Positions 1,655-63,702 are shown, counted from the stretch's first letter. The stretch is 64,000 nucleotides of DNA from a virus (IMGVR_UViG_3300045996_000667:27546-91545); one strand, 5' to 3'. The notes: a model not told the origin generated them from the letters alone. Numbers and translations: made by a program.

Positions 1655-2365
1655 ATGCTTGTGTCTATTGTGGAACGGAGCGGCGACCGCAAGCTCACAC
1701 GCGACAAGAACGTCTCGGCAACCTGGGTGCCCCAACAGTCCTGCCACGAGGACTGCCCTCTCAAGCGGAACGGGTGCTACGCCGAGGTCAACAAGTCCGG
1801 CCTGCACACGCATCGCATGAATGGCAAGGCTCGCAGGCACAAGAGGAGTCTGGCAGACCTGCGAGTGATGCTGGCCAGGCAGGAGGCTGACGGCATCATC
1901 AACAAGCTGACCGGCAAGCGGCAGCTGCGCGTTCACGTCGTGGGCGACTGCGCAACGCCAGAAGCTGCTAAACTGGTAGGCGCGGCCATGGTGGCGCACG
2001 AGGCCAAGCATGGCAAGGCGGCGTGGACGTATACCCACAGCTGGAGACGGATCCTGCCAAAGCACTGGCAGGGCGCGCGAGTGCTGGCAAGCTGTGAGAC
2101 GCCCGATCAGGTCCGGCAGGCGCTGGCTCGAGGCTACGCGGCCGCCCTGATAACGCCCCAGCACCCGTCGAACAAGGTCTATCAGTTTGGCGGGCTGAAC
2201 ATCGTGCCCTGCCCTGCCCAGTTCAAGGGTGGCAGGACTCAGGTGACCTGCGAGGATTGCACATTGTGCAAGTCGCCGGCTATGCTCAGGGAGCGCAACC
2301 TCGTCGTCGGCTTCCAGCCTGACGGCGGCACGAAGAACAAAGTGCTGAAGGTGATCAATGCCTAG
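1655..2365 (+). CDS. hypothetical protein (C-terminal CxxC)
   Basis: In-frame ATG at 1655 within track ORF 1466..2365; contains a palindrome copy at 2257. Confidence 0.55.
   Translation: MLVSIVERSGDRKLTRDKNVSATWVPQQSCHEDCPLKRNGCYAEVNKSGLHTHRMNGKARRHKRSLADLRVMLARQEADGIINKLTGKRQLRVHVVGDCATPEAAKLVGAAMVAHEAKHGKAAWTYTHSWRRILPKHWQGARVLASCETPDQVRQALARGYAAALITPQHPSNKVYQFGGLNIVPCPAQFKGGRTQVTCEDCTLCKSPAMLRERNLVVGFQPDGGTKNKVLKVINA
2257..2271. repeat. palindrome TTGCACATTGTGCAA
   Basis: Perfect 7-1-7 palindrome; encodes CTLCK. Confidence 0.9.
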
Positions 2366-2543
2366 AAAAAAACTCAAGGAGTTCATCATTCCCTGCCGAC
2401 TCACCTACACCGGCGAGGTAATCGTCAAGGGCACAGACGAGGATGATGCCCTTGAGAGATTCGAACGCGGCGAGTTCGAATACGAGGACCGGCAGGAATG
2501 CGTCAACTGGGAAGCCAAGGGCAACGCTCGGCCAAACGAATAG
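2358..2543 (+). CDS. hypothetical protein
   Basis: 61 aa, starts MPRKK. Confidence 0.45.
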   Translation: MPRKKLKEFIIPCRLTYTGEVIVKGTDEDDALERFERGEFEYEDRQECVNWEAKGNARPNE

Positions 2544-2867
2544 ATGCCAAGGAAGAAGAAAATGGCTAAGACATTAGCGGGCGAATTCTTCGGAGAACTG
2601 GCAAAGCTGAACCGGAGGGGTGAGTGGAGTTACCCCTCCAGCGACGGCAAGAGAGAATACACCGCCATCCACCACGGCGACGGCAAGCTGTCCTGCAACT
2701 GCATGGGCTGGACGCGCCAGATCAAGTCGCACTTCGAGAGCTTCTGGCACAACGGCAAGAGTTATACTCTGGCTGGAACGTATCGCTTCTGCACGCACGT
2801 CGCGCAGAGCATCCCGAAGACCGGCGGCAAGGCAGAAATTAGGGGAACAGACCTGTACGTACCATGA
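2544..2867 (+). CDS. SWIM-type zinc-finger small protein (EFFGEL motif near N-terminus)
   Basis: CNCMGW...CTHV is a CxCxnCxH (SWIM) pattern; starts MPRKK. Confidence 0.5.
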   Translation: MPRKKKMAKTLAGEFFGELAKLNRRGEWSYPSSDGKREYTAIHHGDGKLSCNCMGWTRQIKSHFESFWHNGKSYTLAGTYRFCTHVAQSIPKTGGKAEIRGTDLYVP

Positions 2868-3166
2868 CCCTCAAGATCACAGATCGGCACTACCAGTACA
2901 TCGAGTCGGAGGACTTCGAGCGATACATCTCTGAGCGGTGGAACATCCGGTTCAGCGTTGCAAGAGATGAACATGTATCATTTGGGTCCTATCTGGCCTA
3001 CGAGGATGTGCGCGGCAATCTCGACCGCTTCGACCGCGCAGACCTGTCCAACTTCCAGGTTGGCAAGTTGCCAGTCGGAAGCCGATTCACTCACACCCTG
3101 CTAAAGCACGCCATCGTGGATGGCGACTTGCAGCCCGGAAACGTGCTGATCTGCATCACGAAATAG
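2864..3166 (+). CDS. hypothetical protein
   Basis: ORF track. Confidence 0.5.
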   Translation: MTLKITDRHYQYIESEDFERYISERWNIRFSVARDEHVSFGSYLAYEDVRGNLDRFDRADLSNFQVGKLPVGSRFTHTLLKHAIVDGDLQPGNVLICITK

Positions 3167-3224
3167 CGGTTGACATTCCGATCGCGGTAGCGTAGGATTC
3201 CTACACACAAAACAGGAGTATTTT

Positions 3225-4361: not shown

Positions 4362-5705
4362 ATGCCTCCGAGTCAGACATCACCGGCAGAACTGCTAGCT
4401 AAATCGACACCTCAGCAGAAGCTGGCAGCAGTCAAGATACTCGCCATGGACAACAGGCCGTACTTCAGTGCGGCCTATCACGCCCTTGTGCCAGTCGAAG
4501 TGGAGGACAAGTTCTTCCCGCAGGGACAGGCCACGATGGCTGTCGACAAGCACTGGCGACTCTACTGGGCACCGGGAATCTTCGACAAGTGGACCATCCC
4601 AGAGGTCGCCGGCGTGCTCTACCACGAGCTGAGCCACCTTCTGGGAGAACACTTCCAGCGGGCGGAAAAGTACGGCGAAGAATTCAACCAGACGGTATGG
4701 ATGGTAGCCACTGACTGCGCTATCAACTCGACCATCCAGTCAGAGATGGACGAACTGGCAAAGTCGGCCGCTACCAAGACAATCGAGGGCCTTCCCAAGG
4801 AAGGCTGCCTTCCCGAGAAGTGCAACCCGCCGCTGCCGAAAGGACAGACGGCCGAGTTCTACTACGAAGAACTGCTAAAGCAGGCCGAGAAGTCGCCCAA
4901 GTTCAAGGCCATCTTGGAGGGCATGGCGGCCAACTCGGACTGCGGTTCCGGCCAGCACGGTCAGCGTTGCGACCATGAACTGGCAACCGGTGCCAATGAT
5001 GACCGGCATGGCGGGCTGTCAGAAGCTGACGTCACGATGGTCAGGCTTCAGGTCGCCCATGACATCAAGGAGCAGGCTGGTAAGAAGGCCGGCAGCGTGC
5101 CGGGAGGCTGGGAACGCTGGGCCGACGACATCATGCAGCCGCAGGTCGATTACATGCGCTGGATTCGCGCAGCTGTCAGCAATGCCTATCAGGGCGTGGC
5201 TGGCAGGATCGACTATTCCTGGACGCGCCGCCATCGTCAGCAGGACGCCTACGGCAGATTCATCATGCCTGGCATGTATGCCCCTGATGTCAACGTTGGC
5301 ATAGTTGTCGACACGTCAGGCTCGATGAGTCAGGACCAGATCAGTCAGTGCGTGGCAGAAATCGGCAAGGCTCTGTCATGCCTTGGCAACAAGGAAGTCG
5401 TGGTCGCCTCCTGCGATTCCGGTGTCCACTCTATTCAGCGCATCACCCACAAGGGCCAGCTCGCACTCAGAGGTGGTGGTGGCACTGACATGGGTGTCGG
5501 CATTGCCAAGCTCGAAGAGGTTCGCCCGAAGATCAACCTGATGATCCTCCTGACAGACTGCGAAACGCCTTGGCCCGCCAAGCCGCCAAAGGCCAAGCTC
5601 GTACTCGTCAAGGTGGAAGGGAGCGGAGCGCCGCCGCCCTGGCCATGCTCGCTCGTGGAAATCGACCTCAAACGGCTCGGAACCAAGCAGAAGCAGGTAG
5701 CGTAA
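4362..5705 (+). CDS. VWA-domain protein with N-terminal HExxH metallopeptidase-like domain (DUF2201-like); partner of the AAA ATPase
   Basis: 'YHELSHLLGEH' HExxH; MIDAS 'VVDTSGSMS'. Confidence 0.65.
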   Translation: MPPSQTSPAELLAKSTPQQKLAAVKILAMDNRPYFSAAYHALVPVEVEDKFFPQGQATMAVDKHWRLYWAPGIFDKWTIPEVAGVLYHELSHLLGEHFQRAEKYGEEFNQTVWMVATDCAINSTIQSEMDELAKSAATKTIEGLPKEGCLPEKCNPPLPKGQTAEFYYEELLKQAEKSPKFKAILEGMAANSDCGSGQHGQRCDHELATGANDDRHGGLSEADVTMVRLQVAHDIKEQAGKKAGSVPGGWERWADDIMQPQVDYMRWIRAAVSNAYQGVAGRIDYSWTRRHRQQDAYGRFIMPGMYAPDVNVGIVVDTSGSMSQDQISQCVAEIGKALSCLGNKEVVVASCDSGVHSIQRITHKGQLALRGGGGTDMGVGIAKLEEVRPKINLMILLTDCETPWPAKPPKAKLVLVKVEGSGAPPPWPCSLVEIDLKRLGTKQKQVA

Positions 5706-5998
5706 TGCCCTGCGTCGGGTGCTACGACCTTGGAGACGTCTGCGCATGCGGATTCTGGGGTGACGACTGCCGTGGCTGTAACGTCGAAAGGCAACCGTGT
5801 TCTACGTGCTGCACTGGCATGTCTGCCCAGACTGTCAACACTCTTGGGCGTGCCGAAACGACTGCGGTGCGCCCAATCCTAGAGTCCGAATCGAAACCGC
5901 CTGCACAAAGTGCAAAACAAGTCCGAAGAATTCTTCGCAGCCCTAATATGCGGCAACTGGCTACGCTGCATCTACTGCAAGACCGTCGAATGGTTTAA
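5705..5998 (+). CDS. Cys-rich small protein
   Basis: ATG at 5705 in frame with track ORF 5570..5998; dense Cys pairs. Confidence 0.4.
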   Translation: MPCVGCYDLGDVCACGFWGDDCRGCNVERQPCSTCCTGMSAQTVNTLGRAETTAVRPILESESKPPAQSAKQVRRILRSPNMRQLATLHLLQDRRMV

Positions 5999-6137
5999 GT
6001 GCGACGAGACGATGTGTAACGACATCGGCCATCAAGTCATCTGCACTAAATGCCAACGCGACAGAGTCATGATTGCCAAGGACAGAGATGAGCGTGTCTG
6101 GCCAACTACCAACAGCTACAACCCACGACGACCTTGA
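5910..6137 (+). CDS. EFFxAL/zinc-ribbon family small protein
   Basis: MQNKSEEFFAAL then CxxC...CxxC. Confidence 0.45.
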   Translation: MQNKSEEFFAALICGNWLRCIYCKTVEWFKCDETMCNDIGHQVICTKCQRDRVMIAKDRDERVWPTTNSYNPRRP

Positions 6138-6423
6138 ATTCTGGGATGCGCTAGCCAACGAGGACCTTGTGTATTTTGAATCGTTCGGGGTATCCGGATT
6201 CACTAGGAGTTTTATAGACGAACCTGCTCCAACCATCAACATGCCAGATGGAAAAAGAAAGGTTCGCAGGGTTTTCGTCAACACGTCCATTACTAAAAGC
6301 ATCTACGTCAACTTTATTGACCGCAAGAACGAGACTATCGCCCACGTTGGCGTGTTCGCAGACAAAACAGCCGCTGTCAACTTTTTCAAAGGCCTAGCAG
6401 AGCATATCGACAAACATTTCTGA
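6073..6423 (+). CDS. hypothetical protein (LEFWDAL motif)
   Basis: ORF track; alternative ATG at 6089. Confidence 0.45.
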   Translation: MPRTEMSVSGQLPTATTHDDLEFWDALANEDLVYFESFGVSGFTRSFIDEPAPTINMPDGKRKVRRVFVNTSITKSIYVNFIDRKNETIAHVGVFADKTAAVNFFKGLAEHIDKHF

Positions 6424-7025
6424 TGAGATTCCTCGTCGCCTGCGAGTTCTCGGGGAAGGTCCGAGACGCCCTGATAGCTCGAGGCCACCAAGCCATCTCG
6501 TGCGACCTCCGACCAACTGACAGACCTGGCCCACACATTCAAGACGATATCAGGAAGGTCAACCTTAGCAAGTTTGACGGCCTGATCGCCTTCCCGCCCT
6601 GCACCAACCTCGCAGTGAGCGGCTCGAAACACTTCAAACACAAGCATCACTTGCAAGAGCAAGACTTGGCCCTCGTCAGGTTCCTGCTCACCGCTGACGT
6701 GCCGCTGATCGCGCTGGAAAATCCTGTCAGCATCATCAGCACGCACATCCGGCGACCTGATCAGATTATCCACCCCTGGCAGTTCGGCCATAAGGCGTGC
6801 AAAACCACGTGTTTATGGTTGAAAGGCCTGCCACCGTTGAAATATACTCGCGTGGTTGGGCCGCCGCCCAAGCGTTGGGAGGACGAACAGGAATGGCGGA
6901 AATGGAACAAGCTCCACCTTCTGGGCCAGACGAAGGACAGGGCAAAGATTCGCAGCACCACGTTCGACGGCGTGGCGCGAGCCATGGCAACACAGTGGAC
7001 ACAGAGGAGTTCTTCGAGTCGCTAG
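6423..7025 (+). CDS. mini C5-cytosine-methyltransferase-like protein (motifs I/IV/VI only, no target-recognition domain)
   Basis: 'ACEFSG', 'DI...FPPCTNLAVSGSK', 'ALENPVS' match MTase motifs I, IV (PCQ->PCT) and VI (ENV); only 200 aa. Confidence 0.5.
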   Translation: MRFLVACEFSGKVRDALIARGHQAISCDLRPTDRPGPHIQDDIRKVNLSKFDGLIAFPPCTNLAVSGSKHFKHKHHLQEQDLALVRFLLTADVPLIALENPVSIISTHIRRPDQIIHPWQFGHKACKTTCLWLKGLPPLKYTRVVGPPPKRWEDEQEWRKWNKLHLLGQTKDRAKIRSTTFDGVARAMATQWTQRSSSSR

Positions 7026-7576: not shown

Positions 7577-7699
7577 ATGTGGATCTTTATCGACGTTCTG
7601 ATATTCCTCTACATGCTGTTCTGGCCTGAAGGGGCTATCATCTTCGGCGTCGGTTGCCTCATCGTAGTAGGCCTGATAAAGTGGCTGGAGAAGAAATAA
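7577..7699 (+). CDS. small 2-TM membrane protein
   Basis: 40-aa hydrophobic ORF; TAATG coupling to the ligase gene. Confidence 0.35.
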   Translation: MWIFIDVLIFLYMLFWPEGAIIFGVGCLIVVGLIKWLEKK

Positions 7700-8913
7700 T
7701 GCAGACTTGGCCTTTCAAATCTAAGAGCAGCGACAAGGACTACACGACAGTCCTGACAGACGACGGCAAGCTTGGTTGCAACTGCAAGGGCTACACCGTC
7801 CGGCGCGGCGACAGTGTCCGCGAATGCACTCACATGAGGGACGTAATCAAGATACACAAGTTTGACGTGGAGGTGCGAGGCGGCGAGTTCGTCTACGTCA
7901 AGAACCCACAACAGCAGCTTCCCATACTAAGTTCTGAAGGGGTAAAAGTTCAAAATGAAACTGCCCCCTCCAGCGATGTGCCTTTCGGATACATCCAGCC
8001 GATGCTGGCAGAAGCTCTCCTTGATGGGAGTGAACTGAACTACGCCGAATGGCTCGACGCTGTCCGAGTCATGATGGACAAGTATCTGGCTCAAGGATAC
8101 GTCTGCGAGAAGAAGTACGACGGACATCGCAAGATCGTCTACGTAGACAAGAACGGTGTCAGGGCGTGGTCGCGCCCCAAGTCCGGCGCTGGCAAGGTCG
8201 GGTTGCCCAGCCAGCTTCCTTCGCACATCGTTAAGGAACTGCGCCAGCTCGTGACCGGCAGGACCGAAGAACAGAGCGCCTACGGCACCTACGACTGCGA
8301 ACTGGTAGGCGGGTCAGAAACCGACATGTCGTCGGACGTGACTAGGCTCGACAAAGAACATGAGCGCTGTTTGGTCATCTTCGACGTGCTGCACCTGTCC
8401 AACATGAAGGTGCCGAGGTTGCCCTCGGGCAACCAGACCAAGCTGCCCTACAGGTCGCGTCGACAGATACTGACACACCTGTTCAACTTGACAGGAGTCG
8501 GGCTGAAGCATGTCAGGCTATCAGAAGTCATAGACAACGCCACCTTCGATCACGTAAAGAAAATCTGGGACAACGGCGGCGAGGGTGCGATGCTGAAGGA
8601 CCCAGACAGCACATACCAGCCAGGACGACGGTCCACTACGTGGCTCAAGATCAAGAAGCTGGAGCCGGTCCCGTATATCATCACCGGCTACGAGGCTGGC
8701 AAGAACGGACCTTATAGCAAGGTGACGCTCAAGGAGAAGAACAACCCAGCGATCAAGACGTCTGCCAAGACCAAGAACAACGCGTGGTTGAAGCGGTTCG
8801 CGGCTGACCCCGACAAGTATATCGGGGAGGAGCTGGTCTGCATCGTCCGTGGTCGCCATCCCAGCGGAAAGCCTCGCCACTGCATGTGGGATCATCTGGT
8901 AAACTACAACTGA
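7699..8913 (+). CDS. ATP-dependent DNA ligase with N-terminal SWIM zinc finger
   Basis: 'CNCKGY...CTHM' SWIM; ligase motif I 'KYDGHR'; 'PMLAE'. Confidence 0.75.
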   Translation: MQTWPFKSKSSDKDYTTVLTDDGKLGCNCKGYTVRRGDSVRECTHMRDVIKIHKFDVEVRGGEFVYVKNPQQQLPILSSEGVKVQNETAPSSDVPFGYIQPMLAEALLDGSELNYAEWLDAVRVMMDKYLAQGYVCEKKYDGHRKIVYVDKNGVRAWSRPKSGAGKVGLPSQLPSHIVKELRQLVTGRTEEQSAYGTYDCELVGGSETDMSSDVTRLDKEHERCLVIFDVLHLSNMKVPRLPSGNQTKLPYRSRRQILTHLFNLTGVGLKHVRLSEVIDNATFDHVKKIWDNGGEGAMLKDPDSTYQPGRRSTTWLKIKKLEPVPYIITGYEAGKNGPYSKVTLKEKNNPAIKTSAKTKNNAWLKRFAADPDKYIGEELVCIVRGRHPSGKPRHCMWDHLVNYN

Positions 8914-9423: not shown

Positions 9424-9669
9424 TTGGCCCGTCAAATCGCACCAAGGCTCGCCAACGGCGAAACACGTGAACCTCTCTACAACGGCCTGCCGCCGGCCAT
9501 CAAGCAAGGCATCGACGCCATCGCCAAGGACGAAAACAAGTCGCGCTCGTGGGTCATCGAGGAGGCCCTAGTTGATTATTTCCGGCTCGCCCGTCTACTC
9601 GGAAGAAAAAAGTACATCATTCCTTCTACGTGGAAGAAACCGACCCGTCGGAAGCTCATCCGGCCATAG
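9424..9669 (+). CDS. ribbon-helix-helix (CopG/Arc-like) DNA-binding protein
   Basis: TTG start; 'SRSWVIEEALVDYF' is an RHH signature. Confidence 0.55.
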   Translation: MARQIAPRLANGETREPLYNGLPPAIKQGIDAIAKDENKSRSWVIEEALVDYFRLARLLGRKKYIIPSTWKKPTRRKLIRP

Positions 9670-10841: not shown

Positions 10842-10870
10842 TTGACAAACACATGAATCTTGTGTATCAT
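10842..10870 (+). promoter_or_regulatory. sigma70-like promoter TTGACA-N17-TATCAT
   Basis: TTGACA at 10842, TATCAT at 10865; the GTG start of the next gene lies about 7 nt downstream, implying a leaderless transcript. Confidence 0.55.
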
Positions 10871-10876: not shown

Positions 10877-11242
10877 GTGATCGAAGATAAACTTACGAAA
10901 TTGTATCGGTCGTTCGTCCTCAAGAACAGCGACAAGCAGCAGCAGCTGCTCCATCTCCCGTGGGAGTGGGTGCTCTGTTACACCGAGGATAGCGAGGCCG
11001 ACTTTCGTGAGGTCCAGCGCGGCGTTCTTAAGCTTGAACTGCTCGACAAGACAGTCAAGGCTCGAGACAAGCGCTACAAAGTTGTCAGGCACAACGGGGC
11101 GGGCTGGACGAGCCTGCCCCGCACGTGGCTCCGCGACCGCAAGGCCAAGGACGGTGACACCGTAGAACTCTGGTTCTCTGACAACGCCACTCGCCTTTAC
11201 GTGATACTCAAGAAGCGGGAAGATGCTGTCAGCAGAAAGTAA
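10877..11242 (+). CDS. AbrB/MazE-like (swapped-hairpin) DNA-binding protein
   Basis: C-terminal '...WTSLPRTWL...DGDTVELWF...LYVILKK' resembles the SpoVT/AbrB fold. Confidence 0.5.
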   Translation: MIEDKLTKLYRSFVLKNSDKQQQLLHLPWEWVLCYTEDSEADFREVQRGVLKLELLDKTVKARDKRYKVVRHNGAGWTSLPRTWLRDRKAKDGDTVELWFSDNATRLYVILKKREDAVSRK

Positions 11243-11795: not shown

Positions 11796-11956
11796 CAGAG
11801 TTCTTCGAGGCACTAGAAGACTGGTCAGGATGGATGGACATGAACATCTGGTGCAGAGTGTGTGAGGAAGTCGTTCTGAAAAAGGTATATTGGTCGGACG
11901 ACATAGACGTATATCACTGCACAGTGTGCAAGAACGAAGTAACGGCAACGGCATAA
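11726..11956 (+). CDS. EFFxAL/zinc-ribbon family small protein
   Basis: 'LVTEFFEAL...CRVCEE...CTVCKN'; conserved part begins at the upstream TAA (11795); no canonical start there. Confidence 0.45.
   Translation: MDTTNRGTDVSPALLPPDSNPLVTEFFEALEDWSGWMDMNIWCRVCEEVVLKKVYWSDDIDVYHCTVCKNEVTATA
11917..11931. repeat. palindrome variant CTGCACAGTGTGCAA
   Basis: One mismatch from consensus. Confidence 0.7.
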
Positions 11957-13170: not shown

Positions 13171-13500
13171 ATGACGGTACACTTCGAAACGCTCGCTGAG
13201 AACATCCGCAAATGGATCATCAAGGTTAGGACTGACAGGTCTATCAGTCAGTCGGGACTGGCGAAGCTGTCATCGATGAGCATGGGCCACATGAATCGCA
13301 TCGAGAAGGGCGACACCAGCAACCTAAGCATTAGGACCCTTGTTAGGATTGCCAACTCTCTCGACCACGACGTCCGTATTGAGTTCGTAAAGCGCCGCAA
13401 GAACGACGACGACGAGAACGAAACGCCATCAGCCATAATGCATTACTCTGCACTCCTCTGTCTGATAGAGCTGGTTACCGTTGCCAGCCATATCCTATGA
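13171..13500 (+). CDS. HTH XRE-family transcriptional regulator
   Basis: 'QSGLAKLSSMSMGHMNRIEKGDTSNLSIRTLVRIANSL'; direct repeat ACAATTC x2 just upstream. Confidence 0.65.
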   Translation: MTVHFETLAENIRKWIIKVRTDRSISQSGLAKLSSMSMGHMNRIEKGDTSNLSIRTLVRIANSLDHDVRIEFVKRRKNDDDENETPSAIMHYSALLCLIELVTVASHIL

Positions 13501-15091: not shown

Positions 15092-15106
15092 TTGCACATT
15101 GTGCAA
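15092..15106. repeat. palindrome TTGCACATTGTGCAA
   Basis: Intergenic, about 25 nt upstream of the 15118/15123 start. Confidence 0.9.
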
Positions 15107-16805: not shown

Positions 16806-17017
16806 TGGCTGACAACAAGGTCGTCTATCAGGGTCCTAATTTTCTGACCCTCCTGCTCCTCCTGTTCATAACCCTTAAGCTGACAGGCCATATCACGTGG
16901 TCATGGTGGCTAGTGCTCGCCCCTCTCTGGGGCAGTATCCTATTCGCCCTAGGCTTCTTCCTCGTGGCCTGCATCATCGTCGGCATCGGTATCTCGAAAC
17001 GCGGGCGGCGCTGGTAA
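16805..17017 (+). CDS. small 2-TM membrane protein
   Basis: Hydrophobic 70 aa; TAATG coupling to the next gene. Confidence 0.5.
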   Translation: MADNKVVYQGPNFLTLLLLLFITLKLTGHITWSWWLVLAPLWGSILFALGFFLVACIIVGIGISKRGRRW

Positions 17018-17646: not shown

Positions 17647-17861
17647 CAACGCTGTTCTTTATTGTGGTTATCCTGTGGGTTCTTACCTCTTTCTGGGGAT
17701 TGCACTGGCGCGCCGCTGCGCTTCGCGGCGACAGGCATTACTGGCAGTTGTCCGAGTACTGCAACAAGGTCACCGGAGAACTCCTCGCAATCAAGCTGAC
17801 ACTGGACAGCTACAACGCCTGCAAGGCTAACAAGAAACCTGCCAGCTCCTCAAAAACGTAA
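17644..17861 (+). CDS. small membrane protein
   Basis: GTG at 17644 within track ORF 17592..17861; N-terminal TM. Confidence 0.4.
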
Positions 17862-18158
17862 GAAGGTTGTCCTCACTGGGGACGCCTACCGACAACTGAC
17901 ACGGCGAGTCCTAGCCAGAGATGGCTGGGCTTGCCGTAGGTGTCAGTCCCGCCAGAATCTGCAAGTCCACCACACCTTCTTCAAGCGGTCCAATCTCAGG
18001 ATCGATGAAGACTGGAACCTTTGCACATTGTGCAACGTCTGTCACGACCTGGTAGAAAAACACAAGGTTCTTGTGCTTGGCAGCGACTGCAATGCTGTGA
18101 TACACTTCCGCTGGAGAGAGCATGCCGTACACGAACGGGAACACGACGACTCCCGCTG
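17800..18158 (+). CDS. HNH endonuclease ORF lacking a canonical start codon
   Basis: Open frame '...LARDGWACRRCQS...LQVHH...N...CTLCNVCHD' after the TGA at 17797; no ATG/GTG/TTG until codon ~75; +1 frame relative to the upstream gene. Confidence 0.45.
18021..18035. repeat. palindrome TTGCACATTGTGCAA
   Basis: Inside the HNH ORF. Confidence 0.9.
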
Positions 18159-23914: not shown

Positions 23915-23929
23915 ATGCACAATGTGCAA
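23915..23929. repeat. palindrome variant ATGCACAATGTGCAA
   Basis: 36 nt upstream of tRNA-Leu. Confidence 0.8.
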
Positions 23930-29430: not shown

Positions 29431-29651
29431 TGGGTAGGGCTGCCAGAGCTAACCTCTTGGCCGCTCGGGCAGAGTGTGACGGCGACTGTCGGCGCGAGAA
29501 GAAGCTGACAGAACTGGTCCCTTACCTGTTAGCCACTGACGGTACCCACTACTACGTTTGCACAATGTGCAAGCCCGCCTTCGAGCGAGAATTCATCGGC
29601 CAGCCCATCCGACCCTGTCAGTGCGAACGGTGCTTGACAACCACAAAATAA
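29430..29651 (+). CDS. zinc-ribbon small protein
   Basis: 'CDGDC...CTMCKP...CQCERC'; contains the palindrome at 29558. Confidence 0.45.
   Translation: MGRAARANLLAARAECDGDCRREKKLTELVPYLLATDGTHYYVCTMCKPAFEREFIGQPIRPCQCERCLTTTK
29558..29572. repeat. palindrome TTGCACAATGTGCAA
   Basis: Encodes CTMCK. Confidence 0.9.
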
Positions 29652-35680: not shown

Positions 35681-36978
35681 TGAGCTATCAGGCAATAGTT
35701 ACTAGTTTGCACAATGTGCGAAAGCATCCCAACGCGGATCGCTTGAACCTCGCCACTGTGCATGGCCACCAGGTGGTGGTCGGCCTCGAGGCCAAGGAAG
35801 GTGATCGAGGCGTGTTCTTCCCCTGCGACGGGCAACTCTCCGAGGCCATGGCCGAGGCTAACGACCTTGTCGGCTACACTGACCCAGCCACCGGAGAGAA
35901 GAAGGGTGGCTTCTTCGCGAAGAATCGCAGGGTGCGAGCGCAGAAGTTTCGTGGTGAGAAGTCTGACGGCTTCTTCATCGAGCTTGACAAATTGGCCTTT
36001 ACCGGCTATGATCTGTCTACTCTGGAGGACGGCTTCGCCTTCACAGAGCTAGGCGGCGTTCAGGTCTGTCAGAAGTATTACACTCCTGCCACGCGGGCCA
36101 AGATGTCCAGACCTGGTCAGGCGCGCAAGCAGCGCAACCTGATCTTCCCTGAGCACATCGACACAGCCCAGTTCCGCTACAACTCACATCGCATCCCTGT
36201 CGGCGCGGTCGTGTACATCACCGAGAAGGCGCATGGCACTTCTGGCAGGTATGGCAATGTGGCAGAGACGACGCCGATGTCAGGCTGGCAGAAGTTCTGG
36301 GCCAAGCTGGCAGGATTCATCGGAAGGTTTGACCCTGCAACAGAGTTCTTCGGCTATCAGCATCTGTCAGGCTCTCGCCGGGTAGTGCTGGACAAGCAGC
36401 CAGAAGCTGCCAGTTACTACGGGACCAACAGTTTCCGCGAGGACGTCGTCGCCGGCATCGAGCTGCACAAGGGCGAAGTGCTCTACTTCGAGATTGTTGG
36501 CGACGTGGCAGAAGGTCAGCCCATCATGCCTGTCCACACTGTCAAGGATGAACTGAAGGACATCCAGAAGCAGTATGGCAAGAAGATGGATTACAGGTAT
36601 GGCACATTGTCAGGCGAACACAAGATGCTTGTGTATCGTGTGACTCGGCTCAACGAGGACGGCGTCGAAACAGACCTGTCGTGGCAACAGGTCAAGCAGC
36701 GGTGCAAGGAGCTGGGCCTGCAGACTGTGCCGGAACTGGACATGATGTTCACGACTGACGATAGTGACATCTCTCGCCAGATGTTGACAGACACTGTCGA
36801 GGCGCTAACAGACGGCCCGTCAACACTGGACAGCTCGCACATTCGCGAGGGTGTCGTGGTGCGCGTCGAGTCTGACCAGGGCACGTGGTTCTTCAAGAAC
36901 AAGTCGTGGGCCTTCGGCGTACTGGAAGGCTACATCAAGGACTCGGACACCTACGTGGATACCGAGGAAGCAGCGTGA
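35680..36978 (+). CDS. RNA ligase (Rnl2-like) with N-terminal tRNA-binding (CsaA/Trbp111-like) domain
   Basis: N-terminal 'HPNADRLNLATVHGHQVVVGLEAKEGD...FPCDG'; ligase motif I 'ITEKAHGTSGR' (cf. T4 Rnl2 'EKIHGTN'); 'EGVVVRVE...FFKNKSWAF' motifs IV/V. Confidence 0.75.
   Translation: MSYQAIVTSLHNVRKHPNADRLNLATVHGHQVVVGLEAKEGDRGVFFPCDGQLSEAMAEANDLVGYTDPATGEKKGGFFAKNRRVRAQKFRGEKSDGFFIELDKLAFTGYDLSTLEDGFAFTELGGVQVCQKYYTPATRAKMSRPGQARKQRNLIFPEHIDTAQFRYNSHRIPVGAVVYITEKAHGTSGRYGNVAETTPMSGWQKFWAKLAGFIGRFDPATEFFGYQHLSGSRRVVLDKQPEAASYYGTNSFREDVVAGIELHKGEVLYFEIVGDVAEGQPIMPVHTVKDELKDIQKQYGKKMDYRYGTLSGEHKMLVYRVTRLNEDGVETDLSWQQVKQRCKELGLQTVPELDMMFTTDDSDISRQMLTDTVEALTDGPSTLDSSHIREGVVVRVESDQGTWFFKNKSWAFGVLEGYIKDSDTYVDTEEAA
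35707..35721. repeat. palindrome variant TTGCACAATGTGCGA
   Basis: Codons 10-14 of the RNA ligase gene. Confidence 0.85.
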
Positions 36979-40935: not shown

Positions 40936-41394
40936 ATGACGGTAGACGACGTTCATAACGAGTTGCACTTTGTGCAATACGAGCCGACGCTAAGAGGCAT
41001 CCAGGCGATCTGGAAGTCGATTCAGCAGAAGCAGTCCGAAGCTCGAAAAGATCCAAGCAAGGTCAAAGCCTACAAGGGGTTCCTGACACGCTGTATCACG
41101 AAGCTGAAGGACGACAAGATGTCCGACGAGCAGCAACTGTCGGCGGCTAAAGAATTCTGGGCCTGGTATGACCAGCAGGTCGAGCGGTACAAAATCGCTG
41201 AACTGCAGTCTCGCCGGTTCCCACCCTACTGGGAAGCATGGTCGGAGAAGCATCTCCCAGCCCAGTGGGCCGAAGTAATGATGGCGTTCAACGCCGTTAT
41301 TGAAGACACGTCCAAGCGGACGCTCGAGAACCTGAAGCGCGCTTACGTGGAGATGTTTCAAGCTTACGCGTCGTTTCATGCCGAGAGTAGTTGA
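40936..41394 (+). CDS. hypothetical protein
   Basis: ORF track. Confidence 0.5.
   Translation: MTVDDVHNELHFVQYEPTLRGIQAIWKSIQQKQSEARKDPSKVKAYKGFLTRCITKLKDDKMSDEQQLSAAKEFWAWYDQQVERYKIAELQSRRFPPYWEAWSEKHLPAQWAEVMMAFNAVIEDTSKRTLENLKRAYVEMFQAYASFHAESS
40963..40977. repeat. palindrome variant TTGCACTTTGTGCAA
   Basis: Codons 10-14 of the 40936 gene. Confidence 0.7.
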
Positions 41395-42376: not shown

Positions 42377-43033
42377 TTGACGTGTATAGCTGGACTCGTT
42401 GACCGAAGAACTGGCGACGTCTATCTGGGCGGTGACAGCGCTGCGGTGAACGAGGGCTTCGACATGATGACGATAAGCCAGCAGAAGGTTTTCGTCAAGG
42501 GACAGTTCGCCTTCGGATACGCTGGAGAATTCAGGTTCGGACAGATTCTCAGATCTCTGTTCAATCCTCCTTACTTCGACGGGTCTGTCAGCGTTGACGA
42601 CTTCCTGGCTGGGGAGTTCATGGACGAACTCAGGAAGACAGCCAAGGAACTGGGCTGGACTAGAACCGACTCAGACGGGCGCGACCAAGGTGGTCTTGCG
42701 CTCATTGGATTTCAGGGACGGATATTCATCATGCAGGAAAGCTTCGACATCATTGAGCCAGCTGACGGCGCAGCCTCGATTGGCGCAGGCCAGGCCTACG
42801 CCCTTGGCGCAATGAAGGTGCTTGGCGACTTCGGCGTGCCTCACGAGGAGGCCGTTCGCAAGGCCCTACAGGTGTCGGAATACTACTGCAGCGGTGTTCG
42901 TGCTCCGTTCCACATTGTGAAACTTGGTCTAACGGATGGAAAACAGGAGCGCCCGACAAGAAAGACTCGCGGCGGAAATTCTAAGCGAAATTCGGGAAAA
43001 GCGAGACGAACGACGCGAAGCAGCAATCAGTAG
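42377..43033 (+). CDS. HslV/proteasome-like N-terminal-nucleophile peptidase
   Basis: TTG start then Thr1: 'MTCIAGLVDRRTGDVYLGGDSAAV...VFVKGQFAFGYAGEF' parallels HslV '[21 protein letters not shown]...KVIAGFAGGTADAF'. Confidence 0.65.
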   Translation: MTCIAGLVDRRTGDVYLGGDSAAVNEGFDMMTISQQKVFVKGQFAFGYAGEFRFGQILRSLFNPPYFDGSVSVDDFLAGEFMDELRKTAKELGWTRTDSDGRDQGGLALIGFQGRIFIMQESFDIIEPADGAASIGAGQAYALGAMKVLGDFGVPHEEAVRKALQVSEYYCSGVRAPFHIVKLGLTDGKQERPTRKTRGGNSKRNSGKARRTTRSSNQ

Positions 43034-44859: not shown

Positions 44860-45004
44860 GTGTGCCTTCTGCTCCTGGCAGTTGACACATCGGGTCCAAA
44901 ATGACAGTGGCAGCTTCTCTCGACTTTGGCGTTGCACATTGTGCAATCGAGAAATAGCTGCCACTTCGTTCGCCGGTCCTGACCACTCTCAGTCGTCTAG
45001 GTAA
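44816..45004 (+). CDS. small zinc-ribbon protein
   Basis: 'CAFCS...CTLCN'; contains the palindrome at 44932. Confidence 0.35.
   Translation: MPPSPRPTDSPRRTKCAFCSWQLTHRVQNDSGSFSRLWRCTLCNREIAATSFAGPDHSQSSR
44932..44946. repeat. palindrome TTGCACATTGTGCAA
   Basis: In the loop of a 9-bp-stem hairpin (44910-44972). Confidence 0.9.
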
Positions 45005-45593: not shown

Positions 45594-46318
45594 CCGACAC
45601 GGATACCAAGCGCTCTCAGGATGCCAGGCACCTTGGCCTCGCAGCCCACGCCCTGAAGCTTGTTCTGGGTGTCTGCCAGTTCTATCCGGAGACTGCCAAT
45701 TTCTGTCATCAACTCTTGGATGCGAGCATCCCGCTGCTCCACCTCATTAAAGGCTTCCTGGCGCGTTCTGATAGCCTCGGCTAGCTGACCCTTAGCCGCT
45801 AGTAGATCGTTCTCCAGGGAGGCAATACGGGCCGCTAGGACGGCTTCCTGACCATTGCTAGTCGGAGGTAGGACCGGAGGGGTCACCGCGCCGCCTCCAC
45901 AGGGCCTCGGAGCGTAGGGTGGGCCTCCCAAGTCGCGCCATTCCCACACTAGGTGCCCAGGTGCCCCGTCCCTTAGGGGACTGAACGGATGGCTGTAATA
46001 GCCGAGGTCGTCAGGCTGGGCGGTCGGCAGGAAGATGCGGCCAGCGATTCGCCCGCCGCCGCCAATCTGCTGTGTCAGCCCGTAGTAGCCATTGTCGGTA
46101 GGCACGACATTGGGATGGTAGCCAGCCGGCAACCCAGAGGCGCGAAGCACCTCAGCGAAGTCATCTGCAGGCTGGCCCTCCTCCCTACCAATGAGGCTGA
46201 AGAAGTAAGCCTTCGGATCGCTAAGGACGCCATTGTGGCAGCCAGGCACCTGAGCACTGGCCACGGTTGCACATTGTGCAAAGATCGCAGCGAGCATGAA
46301 TGTCTTAAAGTAGTTCAT
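45575..46318 (-). CDS. secreted protein with C-terminal coiled coil (candidate lysis/spanin-like or cell-wall protein)
   Basis: Signal peptide 'MLAAIFAQCATVASA|Q'; Gly/Pro-rich middle; coiled-coil tail. Confidence 0.5.
   Translation of the reverse strand: MNYFKTFMLAAIFAQCATVASAQVPGCHNGVLSDPKAYFFSLIGREEGQPADDFAEVLRASGLPAGYHPNVVPTDNGYYGLTQQIGGGGRIAGRIFLPTAQPDDLGYYSHPFSPLRDGAPGHLVWEWRDLGGPPYAPRPCGGGAVTPPVLPPTSNGQEAVLAARIASLENDLLAAKGQLAEAIRTRQEAFNEVEQRDARIQELMTEIGSLRIELADTQNKLQGVGCEAKVPGILRALGIRVGCQVIR
46267..46281. repeat. palindrome TTGCACATTGTGCAA
   Basis: Codons 13-17 of the minus-strand gene starting at 46318. Confidence 0.9.
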
Positions 46319-54061: not shown

Positions 54062-54340
54062 TCAAGACTGGAGTGCTGGGCCATCCTCGAGGCCTGTTGT
54101 TTCACTCCTATCCGATAGCTTTAAAGTTAGCATCGAAGCTGGAACTGAGTCGGCGTCTGCCGCCTCCCCCATCGCCAACTTGATACCGGCTACGACGCCA
54201 CGGGCAGCCAAGATGTCATTCTTGCGTTGCTCCATGGCTAGTCGTAGAGCCGCTAGTTCCCTGTCCATTCTGTCGAAGTCGGCACACAGGCCTGCCAGCC
54301 GGTGCTCTGCTTCTTTGCACAATGTGCGAAGTTGTTCCAT
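54062..54340 (-). CDS. hypothetical coiled-coil protein
   Basis: ORF track; palindrome at codons 4-8. Confidence 0.45.
   Translation of the reverse strand: MEQLRTLCKEAEHRLAGLCADFDRMDRELAALRLAMEQRKNDILAARGVVAGIKLAMGEAADADSVPASMLTLKLSDRSETTGLEDGPALQS
54315..54329. repeat. palindrome variant TTGCACAATGTGCGA
   Basis: Codons 4-8 of the minus-strand gene starting at 54340. Confidence 0.85.
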
Positions 54341-62267: not shown

Positions 62268-62909
62268 CTACTTTGCCAGTTCAATTCCCCACGCATCTTT
62301 CAGGTGGGGTGTGGTGTCGTCGTCGTTGATAAACCCGTCACGATCTAGTCGGTCCTGAACGGGTGTGGCTTCCCTGATGGCCAGCAAGAGGAGCCTGAGG
62401 TGGCCGTTGATTACCTGCCTGATTTCCTGTCGCGTGGGCAGTGTGTCTTCGTCGTTGTCGAGCTCCTGTAGCGCGTTCCAGAGCAGGTTCTCGACTTGCG
62501 CAATCGTCTTTCGGATAAAGCCTCTGGAGAGATTGCCAGGGTGCCTAACCCACTTCCGAACTACAACCCTGCCCTGCCTTGAGTCGTAGTAGACCAACCG
62601 CTTAGCCCTACGAGGCTCGATCCGATACCAGGAACTGTGATACTTAGGACTGGGAATGTCTTCTGGGATACTGAGGACAATGTCGCCAGGCTTGTTAGGG
62701 GTAGGGTCTGAGGTGCGGGGGCTGGAGCCGTATTCCAAGATGACCCAGTAGTCGTGGCCCTGCACGGTAAGACCGCCACGAACAATGGGGACTGTCTTAC
62801 CGCCGTATTCCTCACTATCACCCTGCTGGAGGTCGCGCAGGACCTTTTCCAGCTCCTCGCCAATCCTGTCTCCCTTTCCTCGAAAGGTGACCTTCCCTGT
62901 CAGTTCCAT
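62268..62909 (-). CDS. hypothetical tail-region protein
   Basis: TAATG coupling to the upstream gene. Confidence 0.5.
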   Translation of the reverse strand: MELTGKVTFRGKGDRIGEELEKVLRDLQQGDSEEYGGKTVPIVRGGLTVQGHDYWVILEYGSSPRTSDPTPNKPGDIVLSIPEDIPSPKYHSSWYRIEPRRAKRLVYYDSRQGRVVVRKWVRHPGNLSRGFIRKTIAQVENLLWNALQELDNDEDTLPTRQEIRQVINGHLRLLLLAIREATPVQDRLDRDGFINDDDTTPHLKDAWGIELAK

Positions 62910-63103
62910 TAGATGGGCATGGCTTGATAGGCCATGTACTCCTCTGTTGTGAGCTGATCGATAGGCTTACCGTTGAACAGTGGCATCTCAGCCACGTTGT
63001 CGGTAAACGTCTGTTCGCCCTTGGCTCGGCGGCTCTCAACGGCTGCGTCGAGGCGCTTCTTATTGATCCAGGCGGCGTGCTGCATCATGATGATTTGCGG
63101 CAT
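62909..63103 (-). CDS. hypothetical small protein
   Basis: ORF track. Confidence 0.45.
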   Translation of the reverse strand: MPQIIMMQHAAWINKKRLDAAVESRRAKGEQTFTDNVAEMPLFNGKPIDQLTTEEYMAYQAMPI

Positions 63104-63159
63104 CGTGAGCCGCAGGCACTGCTCGTAGGACCAGTGGTAGGTCTGGGCGAAGTTATCGA

Positions 63160-63693
63160 TTAGGATGCAGGCGTTTCCTCGGCTGTCGTATCCGTAGGTT
63201 CTGTCGGAAGTGTCGTCGGCAGAAGCTCCTCGATCGCCTTGCCGAGACGTGGAAAAAAATCCGCGAACTCTTGGACAATCTGGTTGTGCTTAATCTGCAT
63301 CAGGACGACTTCGAGCAGCGCCTGCGGACGGTGGCCAAGACGCTTGACCTCGTCAATCTTGATCTTGGGTTCCGACATCTTGCAGCAGAGCCACGCCATC
63401 TTCGGCAGCTCCTTGCCAGCAAGCTTCAGGATTGCGCCGAAGTCTAGGCTCATGGGGTCGAACCCTAGCTTCAGTTCGCCGCCTTCGTTGCTCACGTTGA
63501 AGGCGTTGTAACACTCAGAGATGATTGGGCGGGCCAGCTCGCAAAACTCGATGTACGCGTCGTAGTCGAGGTCCATCATCTCGAAGGTCTTTGACTCTCC
63601 GGTACGAGGGTTTGAGAGCGTAAAGGTTCCGACCGGTTCGTTTCGGCGGGCGCGGGCGATATCAGATACTGTTAGACTCATGGTGGTTTGCAC
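63160..63693 (-). CDS. putative tail assembly chaperone (start either GTG at 63693 or ATG at 63681)
   Basis: Position upstream of the tape-measure gene; acidic C-terminus; palindrome sits at or just upstream of the start. Confidence 0.4.
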   Translation of the reverse strand: MQTTMSLTVSDIARARRNEPVGTFTLSNPRTGESKTFEMMDLDYDAYIEFCELARPIISECYNAFNVSNEGGELKLGFDPMSLDFGAILKLAGKELPKMAWLCCKMSEPKIKIDEVKRLGHRPQALLEVVLMQIKHNQIVQEFADFFPRLGKAIEELLPTTLPTEPTDTTAEETPAS

Positions 63694-63702
63694 AATGTGC
63701 GA
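63688..63702. repeat. palindrome variant TTGCACAATGTGCGA
   Basis: 7 nt upstream of the ATG at 63681 on the minus strand. Confidence 0.85.

Follow-up and report, generated by a model that had tools for sequence, protein, structure and literature searches.

Dispersed 15-bp palindromes in a soil siphovirus and its relatives: putative operators of a dimeric DNA-binding regulator

Introduction

The 64,000-nt stretch of viral DNA analysed here (hereafter, the window) contains repeated copies of a 15-bp palindrome, TTGCACAWTGTGCAA, which stand singly and are scattered over the replication/early and virion/late arms alike. The question raised by this locus is what recognises these copies, and whether it does so on DNA or on RNA. 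A reading made from the sequence alone had proposed a binding site for a dimeric phage regulator, a translational operator, or a target of the encoded HNH or methyltransferase enzymes. Below, we describe the palindrome in the window, in related phages and in unrelated genetic elements, and weigh the possible explanations for it.

Copy number and structure of the palindrome

Six exact copies of TTGCACAWTGTGCAA occur in the window (2257, 15092, 18021, 29558, 44932, and 46267), together with five one-mismatch copies (23915, 35707, 40963, 54315, and 63688) and three two-mismatch copies (11917, 5901, and 42908). Site 11917 counts as a two-mismatch copy against the W-centred pattern and as a one-mismatch copy if the centre base is left free. 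The motif is thus present at all 12 positions listed by the sequence-only reading, but the list missed 5901 and 42908, and its division into nine exact and three one-mismatch copies has to be replaced by six, five, and one (11917) with two mismatches. Its assertion that a 15-mer recurs here above chance is correct: 100 dinucleotide shuffles of the window gave 0.00 exact copies as compared to six, and 0.12 copies with at most two mismatches (maximum 1) as compared to 14. The 10-mers of the palindrome are the most over-represented 10-mers of the window, at 75–115 times expectation. The presence of a dispersed palindrome and its enrichment far above chance are beyond doubt.

The conserved unit is T(T/C)GCACA-N-TGTGC(A/G)A, that is, two 7-bp arms and a free centre base (7-1-7); A, T, C, and G are all found in the centre of orthologous sites. 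Outside these 15 bp, the information content drops to near zero throughout, a repeat finder revealed no longer repeat family around the copies, and neither terminal repeats nor target duplications were found at them. Since no flanking position is conserved, the palindrome is not part of a longer mobile repeat; membership in such a repeat had been named beforehand as a finding that would speak against the motif, and a miniature mobile element or REP-like repeat was rejected on the same three counts. The longer form reported for three copies does exist; it is the 17-mer TTTGCACAATGTGCGAA, present on the + strand at 35706, 54314, and 63687.

Two further candidates were discarded. The consensus of sigma-54 promoters, TGGCAC-N5-TTGC, comprises GG and GC elements; by inspection, the GCAC and TGC elements of the palindrome are 2 bp too close to each other, and the site is symmetric. 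A scan for intrinsic terminators, in which a G+C-rich hairpin followed by a T run was sought, flagged no site as terminator-like. In the search against Rfam at gathering thresholds, tRNAs were the sole matches in the window.

Sites in the window

The 3' end of a DUF7227 gene (1655-2365) contains the exact copy TTGCACATTGTGCAA at 2257..2271, read there as C-T-L-C-K; the centre of this copy is 94 nt upstream of the ATG at 2358. The two-mismatch copy CTGCACAAAGTGCAA (5901..5915), a weak member of the set, is located in the 383 nt that separate genes 4362-5705 and 6088-6423. At 11917..11931 (CTGCACAGTGTGCAA), the core is exact and the centre base is G; this copy occupies the 3' end of a 40-aa zinc-ribbon ORF (C-T-V-C-K), its centre being 34 nt ahead of the start of the dCMP deaminase gene (11958). 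The exact copy at 15092..15106 is intergenic, 16 nt upstream of the TTG start of a PD-(D/E)XK exonuclease gene (15123-16109), and is orthologous in position to L122:9879 and Tunturi_4:51113. Another exact copy (18021..18035) lies in the motif N-L-C-T-L-C of a conserved HNH-like ORF (17800-18159), which has no canonical start codon. Orthologues of this copy occur at L121:12601 and L124:9650; in the L122 orthologue, the protein motif is kept and the palindrome is lost. The distances from 2257 to 2358 and from 18021 to 18122 are both 101 nt, as pointed out earlier, but this agreement looks coincidental.

The one-mismatch copy ATGCACAATGTGCAA (23915..23929) is situated between tRNA(UUA) and tRNA-Leu, 3 nt past a 6-bp hairpin and 21 nt ahead of tRNA-Leu. 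The exact copy at 29558..29572 lies inside a weakly predicted 73-aa ORF (C-T-M-C-K), 62 nt upstream of a sigma-70-like promoter (29634-29662) ahead of a tRNA-Tyr/His/Trp cluster. One-mismatch copies follow at 35707..35721 (TTGCACAATGTGCGA), just past a 170-nt gap, in codons 10-14 of the RNA ligase gene (35680-36978), and at 40963..40977 (TTGCACTTTGTGCAA), 27 nt inside gene 40936-41394, with promoter 40823-40851 about 110 nt upstream. The two-mismatch sequence TTCCACATTGTGAAA (42908..42922), deep within gene 42464-43033, is probably a chance or decayed copy because its core is broken. The exact copy at 44932..44946 is at the tip of a long hairpin (44900-44970; dG -33.8 kcal/mol, z = -5.3) in the gap between converging rightward and leftward genes. 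This hairpin has no T run, and 44932 is the sole site embedded in a long hairpin. The exact copy at 46267..46281 is found 37 nt into the leftward gene 45575-46318, in the signal-peptide region and directly after HNH gene 46305-46838. Two one-mismatch copies read TCGCACATTGTGCAA in gene orientation. The first (54315..54329) is 11 nt into a leftward 92-aa gene of the tail module (54062-54340), and the second (63688..63702) is 6 nt upstream of the ATG of a tail-assembly-chaperone-like gene (63160-63681). The position of the latter is kept in seven of eight relatives, and a covarying hairpin precedes the palindrome.

Five copies had been thought to encode CT(L/M/V)C. This applies to four of them (2257, 11917, 18021, and 29558); site 54315 reads R-T-L-C-K.

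Position relative to genes

The sites are distributed non-randomly and lie near gene starts, for the most part in short intercistronic gaps or within the opening codons of genes. By our own gene calls, 10 of the 14 centres in the window fall between -100 and +50 of a start, in agreement with the earlier statement that most copies do so. Eight of the 14 copies are within 50 nt of a start, as compared to 16% expected (p=6e-4), and six are intergenic, as compared to about 10% of the DNA (p=2e-3). A total of 372 kb of this phage family contains 51 exact cores. About 69% of these are intergenic versus 20% for random positions, and 31% are centred 5–40 nt upstream of a start codon versus 4% for random positions. 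Part of the start-proximal bias arises because coding sequence is avoided and intercistronic gaps adjoin starts by definition.

About a third of the sites are inside genes, far from starts, and the spacing between site and start ranges from overlapping to more than 30 nt. Roughly a third to half of the sites lie at or abut the ribosome-binding site, while the others do not. In gaps of 70–200 nt, the site is still placed hard against the downstream start codon, and no Shine-Dalgarno sequence separates palindrome and start at 63688, 15092, L114, and L116. No promoter elements were found at a fixed distance from the sites, which are not associated with the recognisable sigma-70-type promoters of the phage. 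Imperfect copies are found in both orientations relative to genes.

Conservation in related phages

The core GCACA-N-TGTGC occurs at 10–60 times chance level in the window and in every relative fetched; the motif count in relatives, suggested earlier as a check, is therefore above random expectation. The motif is common to phages sharing only 30–50% protein identity, and its core is invariant down to about 30%. Orthologous sites can be recognised across phages, for example, ahead of the tail-chaperone and exonuclease genes. In orthologous intergenic copies, the palindrome is kept and the flanking DNA has diverged, in the manner of a footprint. This observation and the occurrence of copies in all reading frames as well as in intergenic DNA bear out the proposal that the signal resides in DNA or RNA and is not a protein motif.

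In Tunturi_4, a cultured Tunturiibacter (Acidobacteria) phage, the motif takes the form CTGCACA(C/G)TGTGCAG, with seven perfect sites and about 12 variants; five of the seven are centred at -18 to -33 from a start. This phage encodes an integrase and three HTH regulators, and no site adjoins its HTH genes gp97, gp104 or gp105.

Sequence versus base pairing

The sites are selected as sequence. The survey of 372 kb revealed, besides the 51 consensus cores, 25 one-sided variants and eight two-sided 'compensated' palindromes over 15 types, which is the chance level, and thus no compensatory changes in the five core pairs beyond chance. Since compensatory variants are lacking, it is the sequence, not the pairing, that is conserved. 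The commonest variants affect a single half-site (GCATA in Tunturi_4 and TCGCACA in the family of the window) and are found in both orientations with respect to transcription; the C.A mismatches that they produce in mRNA are no rarer than the G.U wobbles. Judged from these comparisons, the variant pattern is what a DNA half-site would predict, and not what an RNA stem would. In the copy overlapping the conserved C-T-L-C protein motif, nucleotides outside those codons are still kept, and nucleotides next to the Cys codons are conserved even though the adjacent residues vary.

A dimeric regulator on DNA and its candidate proteins

In our view, these palindromes may represent dispersed operators on double-stranded DNA for a dimeric DNA-binding regulator, most likely of the XRE/Cro type; we regard this as the best reading and give it about even chances of being correct. 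The two monomers would read one 7-bp arm each (T-T/C-G-C-A-C-A) and leave unread the central base pair on the dyad axis. The bound dimer could act locally on transcription passing or starting there, as a roadblock or an operator, so that a single regulator could control the expression of many gene blocks simultaneously. We infer both the nature of the ligand, a protein dimer of the HTH class bound to DNA, and the effect of its binding on expression.

Indirect support for a dimeric regulator comes from unrelated genetic elements in which the palindrome occurs beside XRE HTH genes in operator-like clusters. Three sites are present in a Loktanella island (L188), in a divergent region of roughly 80 bp that separates an XRE from a Cro-like gene beside an integrase, and four sites surround an XRE gene adjoining an integrase in L274. 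One site in L268 lies in a divergent region, next to a gene homologous to that of the Tunturi_4 'repressor' gp104 (35% identity, E=1e-15), and one site in an Acidobacteriaceae contig (L180) is located 120–145 nt upstream of a chromosomal XRE gene. Clustered sites in a promoter region by a regulator gene were found in the unrelated L188, L274, and L268 only. Several observations speak against the DNA-regulator reading, among them the missing association with sigma-70-type promoters and the lack of sites beside the candidate regulator genes of the window and the HTH genes of Tunturi_4. Sites placed hard against the start codon even in large gaps are not predicted by a pure roadblock model, and an invariant core is unusual for rapidly diversifying immunity repressors.

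The proteins named earlier as possible binders, two XRE HTH, one RHH, and one AbrB-like, are not supported in this role. Pfam confirmed one XRE-family HTH protein (13171-13500, + strand), which is the sole confirmed HTH regulator of the window and a candidate binder, and the RHH protein (9424-9669); the second XRE protein was not found, and the 'AbrB-like' identity of 10877-11242 was not confirmed. No palindrome adjoins any of these three genes, and the sites nearest to the XRE gene are 1.2 and 1.6 kb away. A word-indexed search detected no homologue of this XRE protein in the motif-sharing relatives; other XRE proteins in L122, L124, and Tunturi_4 display generic similarity only. No gp104-like protein was found among those encoded by the 84 kb read from this genome. 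A speculative alternative binder is an all-helical 209-aa protein (17017-17646, + strand). It alone among the small non-enzymatic proteins is shared by all relatives and by Tunturi_4, where a perfect palindrome lies 25 nt upstream of the start of its homologue gp50. No recognisable DNA-binding domain was found in the 209-aa protein.

Alternative explanations

A possible, though clearly less probable, explanation is that the palindrome works in mRNA as a 6-bp hairpin with a 3-nt loop just ahead of the ribosome-binding site or start codon. Sequence-specific binding by a conserved phage or host RNA-binding protein or nuclease would then provide global control, comparable to that by T4 RegA or coat proteins, over translation initiation in many cistrons or over their intercistronic processing and stability. 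This translational-operator alternative is still a live one on account of the marked preference for sites shortly before start codons, seen in the 51 cores and in the perfect Tunturi_4 sites. It also fits the abutment of sites to starts in long gaps and the four starts devoid of an intervening Shine-Dalgarno sequence. The small hairpin is present in the minimum-energy fold of nearly every site context, several sites are preceded by a second hairpin with a covarying stem (CGGTG/CACCG, CGATG/CATCG, ACGCCG/CGGCGT), one site lies between tRNA genes, and a core invariant over deep divergence would suit a conserved housekeeping factor. Against it stand the missing compensatory changes, the frequency of C.A mismatches, the third of sites inside genes, the variable spacing to starts, and the location of site 44932 at a convergent junction. 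Moreover, the same palindrome occurs elsewhere in promoter/operator arrangements beside HTH genes, and the positional bias is partly a by-product of avoiding coding sequence. We consider it rather unlikely that the sites are start-associated control elements at which a conserved factor recognises the GCACA-N-UGUGC hairpin, or the same DNA sequence, upstream of cistrons often lacking a Shine-Dalgarno sequence, and governs translation or processing across this Acidobacteria phage family. Such an element, if real, would account for the similar repeats of Cluster O mycobacteriophages as well.

It is improbable that the sites serve a DNA-transaction machine, either as targets or assembly points of, for example, the gp50-like protein and a partner HNH protein (site-specific nicking, recombination or replication initiation), or as short homology patches for module exchange between related phages. 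The gp50-like gene, present in all relatives, adjoins a small HNH gene, some of its homologues are fused to an HNH domain, and in Tunturi_4 a perfect site directly precedes gp50. Sites also occur at gene boundaries, where mosaic joints occur, and recombination between the analogous Cluster O repeats is documented (PMC4351075). However, proximity is the sole link of these two proteins to the palindrome, the gp50-like protein lacks a recognisable DNA-binding domain, and an over-represented palindromic nuclease target would be self-destructive unless cleavage were tightly limited. A homology patch of 15 bp is short for recombination and has no need of dyad symmetry. An HNH or methyltransferase target, as suggested earlier, is likewise unlikely for an over-represented 15-bp site.

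We attach similarly little probability to a host transcription factor or nucleoid protein, common to Acidobacteria hosts, through which phages would have tied themselves into host regulation by gathering sites. In its favour, very divergent phages share an unchanged core but not the HTH proteins that they encode, and one copy precedes the chromosomal XRE gene of L180. However, a scan of 185,579 species' genomes for TTGCACANTGTGCAA, a weak test limited to one flank variant and to the matches listed, gave at least 120 matches in scattered, chance-like taxa, with Acidobacteriota accounting for 3 of the 120 matches listed.

That the repeat results from the coding of Cys-Thr-X-Cys zinc-ribbon/HNH motifs, or is a miniature mobile element, is highly improbable and already contradicted for the whole set: four window copies do encode C-T-(L/M/V)-C and that at 18021 lies in a conserved HNH motif, but most copies are intergenic or in other frames, nucleotides beside the motif are conserved though amino acids differ, signs of a mobile element are absent, and coding would explain at most the seeding of a few in-gene copies.

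Comparison with known phage repeats

The putative operators of a dimeric regulator can be compared with several known phage elements. The start-associated sequences of Cluster K mycobacteriophages and the translational operators of the T4 RegA type are short repeated elements just upstream of many start codons; they are asymmetric and contain or overlap the Shine-Dalgarno sequence or AUG, whereas the present element is a palindrome devoid of Shine-Dalgarno-like sequence and a third of its copies are not near starts. Smith and co-workers reportedly found in the 1990s that the phiC31 repressor binds conserved inverted repeats (CIRs) of about 17 bp in many intergenic copies. These share with the present sites a highly conserved inverted repeat, many intergenic copies, and the (here putative) role of operator for one repressor; the sites of phiC31 have a known binder and are concentrated in the early region, whereas those described here also occur in the virion module. 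The CI/Cro-type XRE operators, dyad-symmetric sites of 14–18 bp, agree in size, symmetry, and free centre but are clustered in a divergent promoter region by the regulator gene, while those studied here are single and dispersed.

Stoperators are 13–14 bp long, oriented with respect to transcription, and bound by the immunity repressor of the phage, which halts transcription elongation. Those of Cluster A mycobacteriophages are described as asymmetric and bound by a monomeric repressor (PMC9283540). Like the present repeats, stoperators of the L5 gp71 type (PMC9283540, PMC6550527) consist of one short site in many copies through early and late operons, typically in short gaps or over start and stop codons, and imply one regulator acting genome-wide. 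They differ in being asymmetric and oriented, whereas here the sites are perfect palindromes with imperfect copies in both orientations.

The 17-bp dyad repeats 5'-TGTTCGG-NNN-CCGAACA of Cluster O mycobacteriophages (Cresawn et al. 2015, PMC4351075) also combine invariant 7-bp inverted arms with a variable centre and occur as dozens of single copies over the whole genome of a large siphovirus, with about 40% in short intergenic gaps, about 30% early in genes, and the rest internal. In both cases, the repeats are mostly off promoters, show no orientation to transcription and are occasionally lost by single base changes; a transcriptional role was judged 'unlikely' by the Cluster O authors for similar reasons (PMC4351075). 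Cluster O phages and Tunturi_4 are both reported to be prolate-headed. The sequence and the spacing (7-3-7 versus 7-1-7) are different, and the likeness is one of kind and implies no common descent. The density is 14 per 64 kb here versus 34 per about 70 kb in Cluster O, the host phylum is different, and Cluster O genomes are near-identical as compared to 30–50% protein identity in the present family.

Significance

Dispersed dyad repeats were previously noted in a few groups of actinobacteriophages and are now found in phages of a different host phylum. A mechanism has been worked out for the asymmetric stoperators only, and the symmetric Cluster O repeats are still without explanation ten years on. 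The invariance of the core in phages whose proteins have diverged to about 30% identity points to a conserved, probably important ligand. The motif is a practical marker for an uncultured family of roughly 90–125 kb soil siphoviruses and for their operon boundaries. Tunturi_4 carries the motif and grows on a cultured Tunturiibacter host, which makes the function of such repeats directly testable.

Genome context of the repeat

The window is part of an uncultured phage genome of 124-125 kb with a G+C content of 56%. The rightward genes (1-44,859) encode nucleotide-metabolism and replication functions, and their products include DNA ligase, dCMP deaminase, PD-(D/E)XK exonuclease, two helicases, a methyltransferase, RNA ligase and a ThyX-like protein. 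From position 44,989 on, leftward genes supply lysis and tail functions, with those for capsid and terminase located just outside the window, which also contains eight tRNAs. Megablast with 20 kb of sequence as query, run against 50,697 phage records, revealed no near-identical cultured phage. Among cultured phages, the Acidobacteria siphovirus Tunturi_4 gave the highest-ranking match to the terminase (36% identity, E=5e-84) and also to the primase-helicase. The gene order of Tunturi_4 resembles that of the window, and this phage encodes an integrase and three HTH regulators.

The tRNA heading the phage tRNA cluster (23805-23877) carries the anticodon UUA, as identified by ARAGORN and Rfam, and is a potential ochre (UAA) suppressor. 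Together with small RF-1-domain genes in relatives (19538-19894 in contig L122; gp53 in Tunturi_4), it hints at manipulated stop-codon reading. A gene for a Ku-domain protein was detected among small early genes about 3 kb upstream of the window (6446-7309 of L367, a sequence of the same phage); this protein and the ATP-dependent DNA ligase encoded at 7699-8913 of the window suggest a phage-borne end-joining pair. The 7-bp palindrome CTGWCAG occurs at 61 sites across the whole window, versus 14.8 ± 4.3 in shuffles, and is a possible target of a methyltransferase or a recognition site of another kind. The Tunturi_4 record has a 2.4-kb non-coding stretch (64450-66830) with tandem (GTGTGTGTCT)n-type repeats and many CACACA tracts, which may be an origin or genome-end region.

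Copy number and structure of the palindrome

The 15-bp palindrome is a real and highly significant repeat. Exact matches to TTGCACAWTGTGCAA were found at six positions of the window (2257, 15092, 18021, 29558, 44932, and 46267) and not once across 100 dinucleotide-preserving shuffles. The sequence-only reading had proposed a count against shuffled sequence; with up to two mismatches to TTGCACAWTGTGCAA, this gave 14 copies in the window versus 0.12 expected. In an unbiased k-mer count, the most over-represented 10-mers were the palindrome's own, at 75-115 times the composition expectation. All 12 coordinates listed by that reading were recovered by a pattern match allowing two mismatches, but its tally of nine exact and three one-mismatch copies has to be corrected to six exact, five one-mismatch and one two-mismatch, and the weak copies at 5901 and 42908 had been overlooked. 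The three-fold occurrence of the 17-mer TTTGCACAATGTGCGAA and two distances of 101 nt were reproduced; C-T-(L/M/V)-C is encoded by four copies rather than the five stated.

In the window pooled with its relatives, the conserved unit is T(T/C)GCACA-N-TGTGC(A/G)A, with five essentially invariant inner pairs, a free centre base and two softer outer pairs. Not a single position outside the 15 bp carried information when 38 sites were aligned in gene orientation. The palindrome is therefore self-contained: it does not sit at the centre of some longer mobile repeat, nor does it keep a set distance from any promoter or Shine-Dalgarno sequence. That the copies might be pieces of a longer mobile repeat, a possibility raised earlier, is contradicted by these uninformative flanks, and a repeat search gave no longer family.

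Conservation in related phages

Relatives were found by a motif scan and by tracing homologues of the chaperone-like protein (63160-63681) and the exonuclease (15123-16109) to their contigs; IMG/VR locus searches with single proteins (primase/helicase, chaperone) gave no matches. These relatives have G+C contents of 56-63%, share 30-70% protein identity with the window, and carry one to five exact cores per 10-20 kb each, versus about 0.05 expected. Tunturi_4, whose sites take the form CTGCACANTGTGCAG, contains seven perfect CTGCACA(C/G)TGTGCAG copies and about a dozen variants. A term search of the paper describing Tunturi_4 found neither 'palindrom' nor 'promoter'.

In seven of eight relatives, an orthologous copy precedes the chaperone start by 3-14 nt, and the palindrome is there the sole conserved block of a diverged gap of 100-200 nt. 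The copy upstream of the exonuclease start is common to the window (15092), contig L122 (9879) and Tunturi_4 (51113). The 18021 copy lies inside a conserved HNH-like ORF with the motif N-L-C-T-L-C. It is kept in contigs L121 and L124, in which the retained flanking bases encode different amino acids; L122 has kept the protein motif and lost the equivalent palindrome. It is thus the nucleotide sequence that is under selection.

The HNH-like ORF itself (17800-18159) comprises 119 open codons, with no ATG, GTG or TTG before codon 77, and has CTG where L121 has ATG. Either the gene is decaying or it uses a non-canonical start.

Placement of the copies

In the window, 8 of the 14 copies are centred no more than 50 nt from a start codon (16% expected, p=6e-4), and 6 of 14 are intergenic, versus an intergenic share of DNA of 10% (p=2e-3). 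A pooled set of 372 kb, with genes called uniformly by a crude purpose-made gene caller, contained 51 exact cores. By these crude calls, 69% of the cores are intergenic compared to 20% of random positions, and the centre falls 5-40 nt ahead of a start in 31% compared to 4%. In Tunturi_4, five of the seven perfect copies occupy gaps of 33-108 nt and have their centres at -18 to -33. Palindromes are present in both early and late modules; a 9.7-kb stretch of small early genes preceding the window contained none. The 23915 copy is located between tRNA genes, and the 44932 copy at the point where two transcription directions converge. The latter forms the tip of a long hairpin (44900-44970; dG -33.8 kcal/mol, z = -5.3), a probable bidirectional transcription stop although it lacks a T run.

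The gap between the tail-tube-like and chaperone-like genes (63703-63900; 9796-9979 in contig L112) includes an intrinsic-terminator-like hairpin. It is followed, directly before the palindrome, by a 5-bp stem with a T-loop-like 7-nt loop, (T/C)TCGGC(C/A). This stem covaries between phages, and homologous gaps occur in contigs L114, L116, L117, and L066.

DNA or RNA recognition

A binding site for a dimeric regulator, as put forward in the sequence-only reading, is still the best interpretation available, with its specifics unproven. We regard it as an even call whether the palindromes are multi-site DNA operators of this kind. A dimeric regulator would then use the dispersed double-stranded palindromes as operators, reading them half-site by half-site.

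A more doubtful interpretation is a hairpin operator in the mRNA, positioned at ribosome-binding sites. In its favour, a small hairpin (6 bp, 3-nt loop) is predicted in nearly every mRNA context, a second hairpin with a covarying stem precedes some sites, and several downstream genes lack a Shine-Dalgarno sequence. However, at the five core pairs, 51 sites have the consensus and 25 are one-sided variants, while two-sided variants number only 8 over 15 possible types, which is the chance level. Recurrent variants show the same half-site change, whichever the gene direction, and in the transcript C.A mismatches result no less often than G.U wobbles. In addition, one third of the sites are distant from any start. 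Since variant pattern and placement point against an mRNA operator, a sequence-specific ligand is required. DNA half-site recognition matches the variant pattern slightly better than an RNA stem.

Readings that invoke a DNA transaction or a host factor share the remaining probability. A pattern scan of one genome per prokaryotic species revealed a chance-like taxonomic scatter, with no Acidobacteria excess among the matches listed. The scattered taxa among at least 120 listed genome matches speak weakly against a host regulon. The only multi-match genomes among the matches listed were two Chloroflexaceae MAGs, and the Chloroflexaceae repeat loci are unrelated to the phage by protein content.

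The Chloroflexaceae repeat is an imperfect hairpin of about 200 bp (L133 2060-2370, L172 4540-4850, L155 3260-3570, and L186 2640-2950) with terminal inverted repeats ACAGGAGTTACGCGGT...ACCGCGTAACTCCTGT. Its exact tip is TTGCACAATGTGCAA, and the tip-adjacent stem covaries between copies. The repeat was not recognized by Rfam.

Host-type sigma-70 promoters, TTGACA-17-TAT(C/T)AT, form a repeat family separate from the palindrome. Near-consensus copies, all on the + strand, were located at 3170-3198, 10842-10870, 22151-22179, 29634-29662, 35984-36012, and 40823-40851 as well as at about 1648 and 42336; their spacer is conserved (ACACA...cTTGTG). Tunturi_4 has nine copies of a comparable motif, AACATCTTGACAC. 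With the real promoters forming this other family and no promoter-like element at a constant distance, the palindrome was rejected as a promoter; inspection of spacing or sequence likewise dismissed sigma-54, N4-type hairpin promoter and DnaA-box readings. A literature search with the motif string returned only human LINE-1 primer matches.

Candidate binding proteins

As to the ligand of the putative DNA operators, the XRE protein encoded at 13171-13500 has no detectable homologue in the relatives, which leaves it unsupported as a conserved binder, and no palindrome adjoins its gene. Two small proteins (10877-11242 and 17017-17646) are conserved in the relatives, the second being present also in Tunturi_4 as gp50. 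Neither had a match in Pfam, PHROGs or PDB sequences or a recognisable fold, and their single-sequence AlphaFold models (pLDDT 41 and 52) were not used. No homologue of the gp104 type of repressor was detected within the 84 kb searched of the 124-kb genome.

The 17017-17646 protein (P0054, P0062) is all-helical, 209 aa long and found family-wide and in Tunturi_4, always with a small HNH gene adjoining. Some distant gp50-like homologues are fused to an HNH domain. This protein may be the DNA-targeting partner of an HNH nuclease.

Palindromes of this type can be placed like HTH operators, as seen in unrelated elements that the pattern scans picked up. Three of them fill the divergent XRE/Cro-like gene region beside an integrase in a Loktanella island (L188), and four surround an XRE gene with an adjoining integrase in L274. 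In L268, a clear homologue of Tunturi_4 gp104 has one in the adjoining divergent region, and an Acidobacteriaceae contig has one upstream of an XRE gene. By analogy, this provides indirect support for an HTH protein as a candidate ligand at the phage sites.

The Loktanella agnita element (L188 3600-4300) is integrated; its genes include an integrase, an excisionase-like gene and a divergent XRE/Cro-like pair. Five TTGCAC-N3-GTGCAA-type operators are present, along with a homologue (35%) of window gene 6423-7025.

Comparison with known dispersed repeats

The conserved inverted repeats of phiC31 share symmetry and multiplicity with the phage palindrome, and stoperators are oriented relative to transcription. 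Cluster A stoperators resemble the palindrome in their genome-wide distribution, whereas PMC9283540 describes them as asymmetric and their repressor as monomeric, the palindrome being symmetric. Of the phenomena described so far, the 17-bp repeat of Cluster O mycobacteriophages, with its 7-3-7 layout, comes nearest, being similar in architecture, genomic distribution and lack of promoter association (PMC4351075). By these likenesses, the palindrome is to be placed with known dispersed repeats such as those of Cluster O. Because the motif is present in a cultivable phage-host pair, that of Tunturi_4 and Tunturiibacter empetritectus M8UP27, the question of its mechanism is experimentally tractable.
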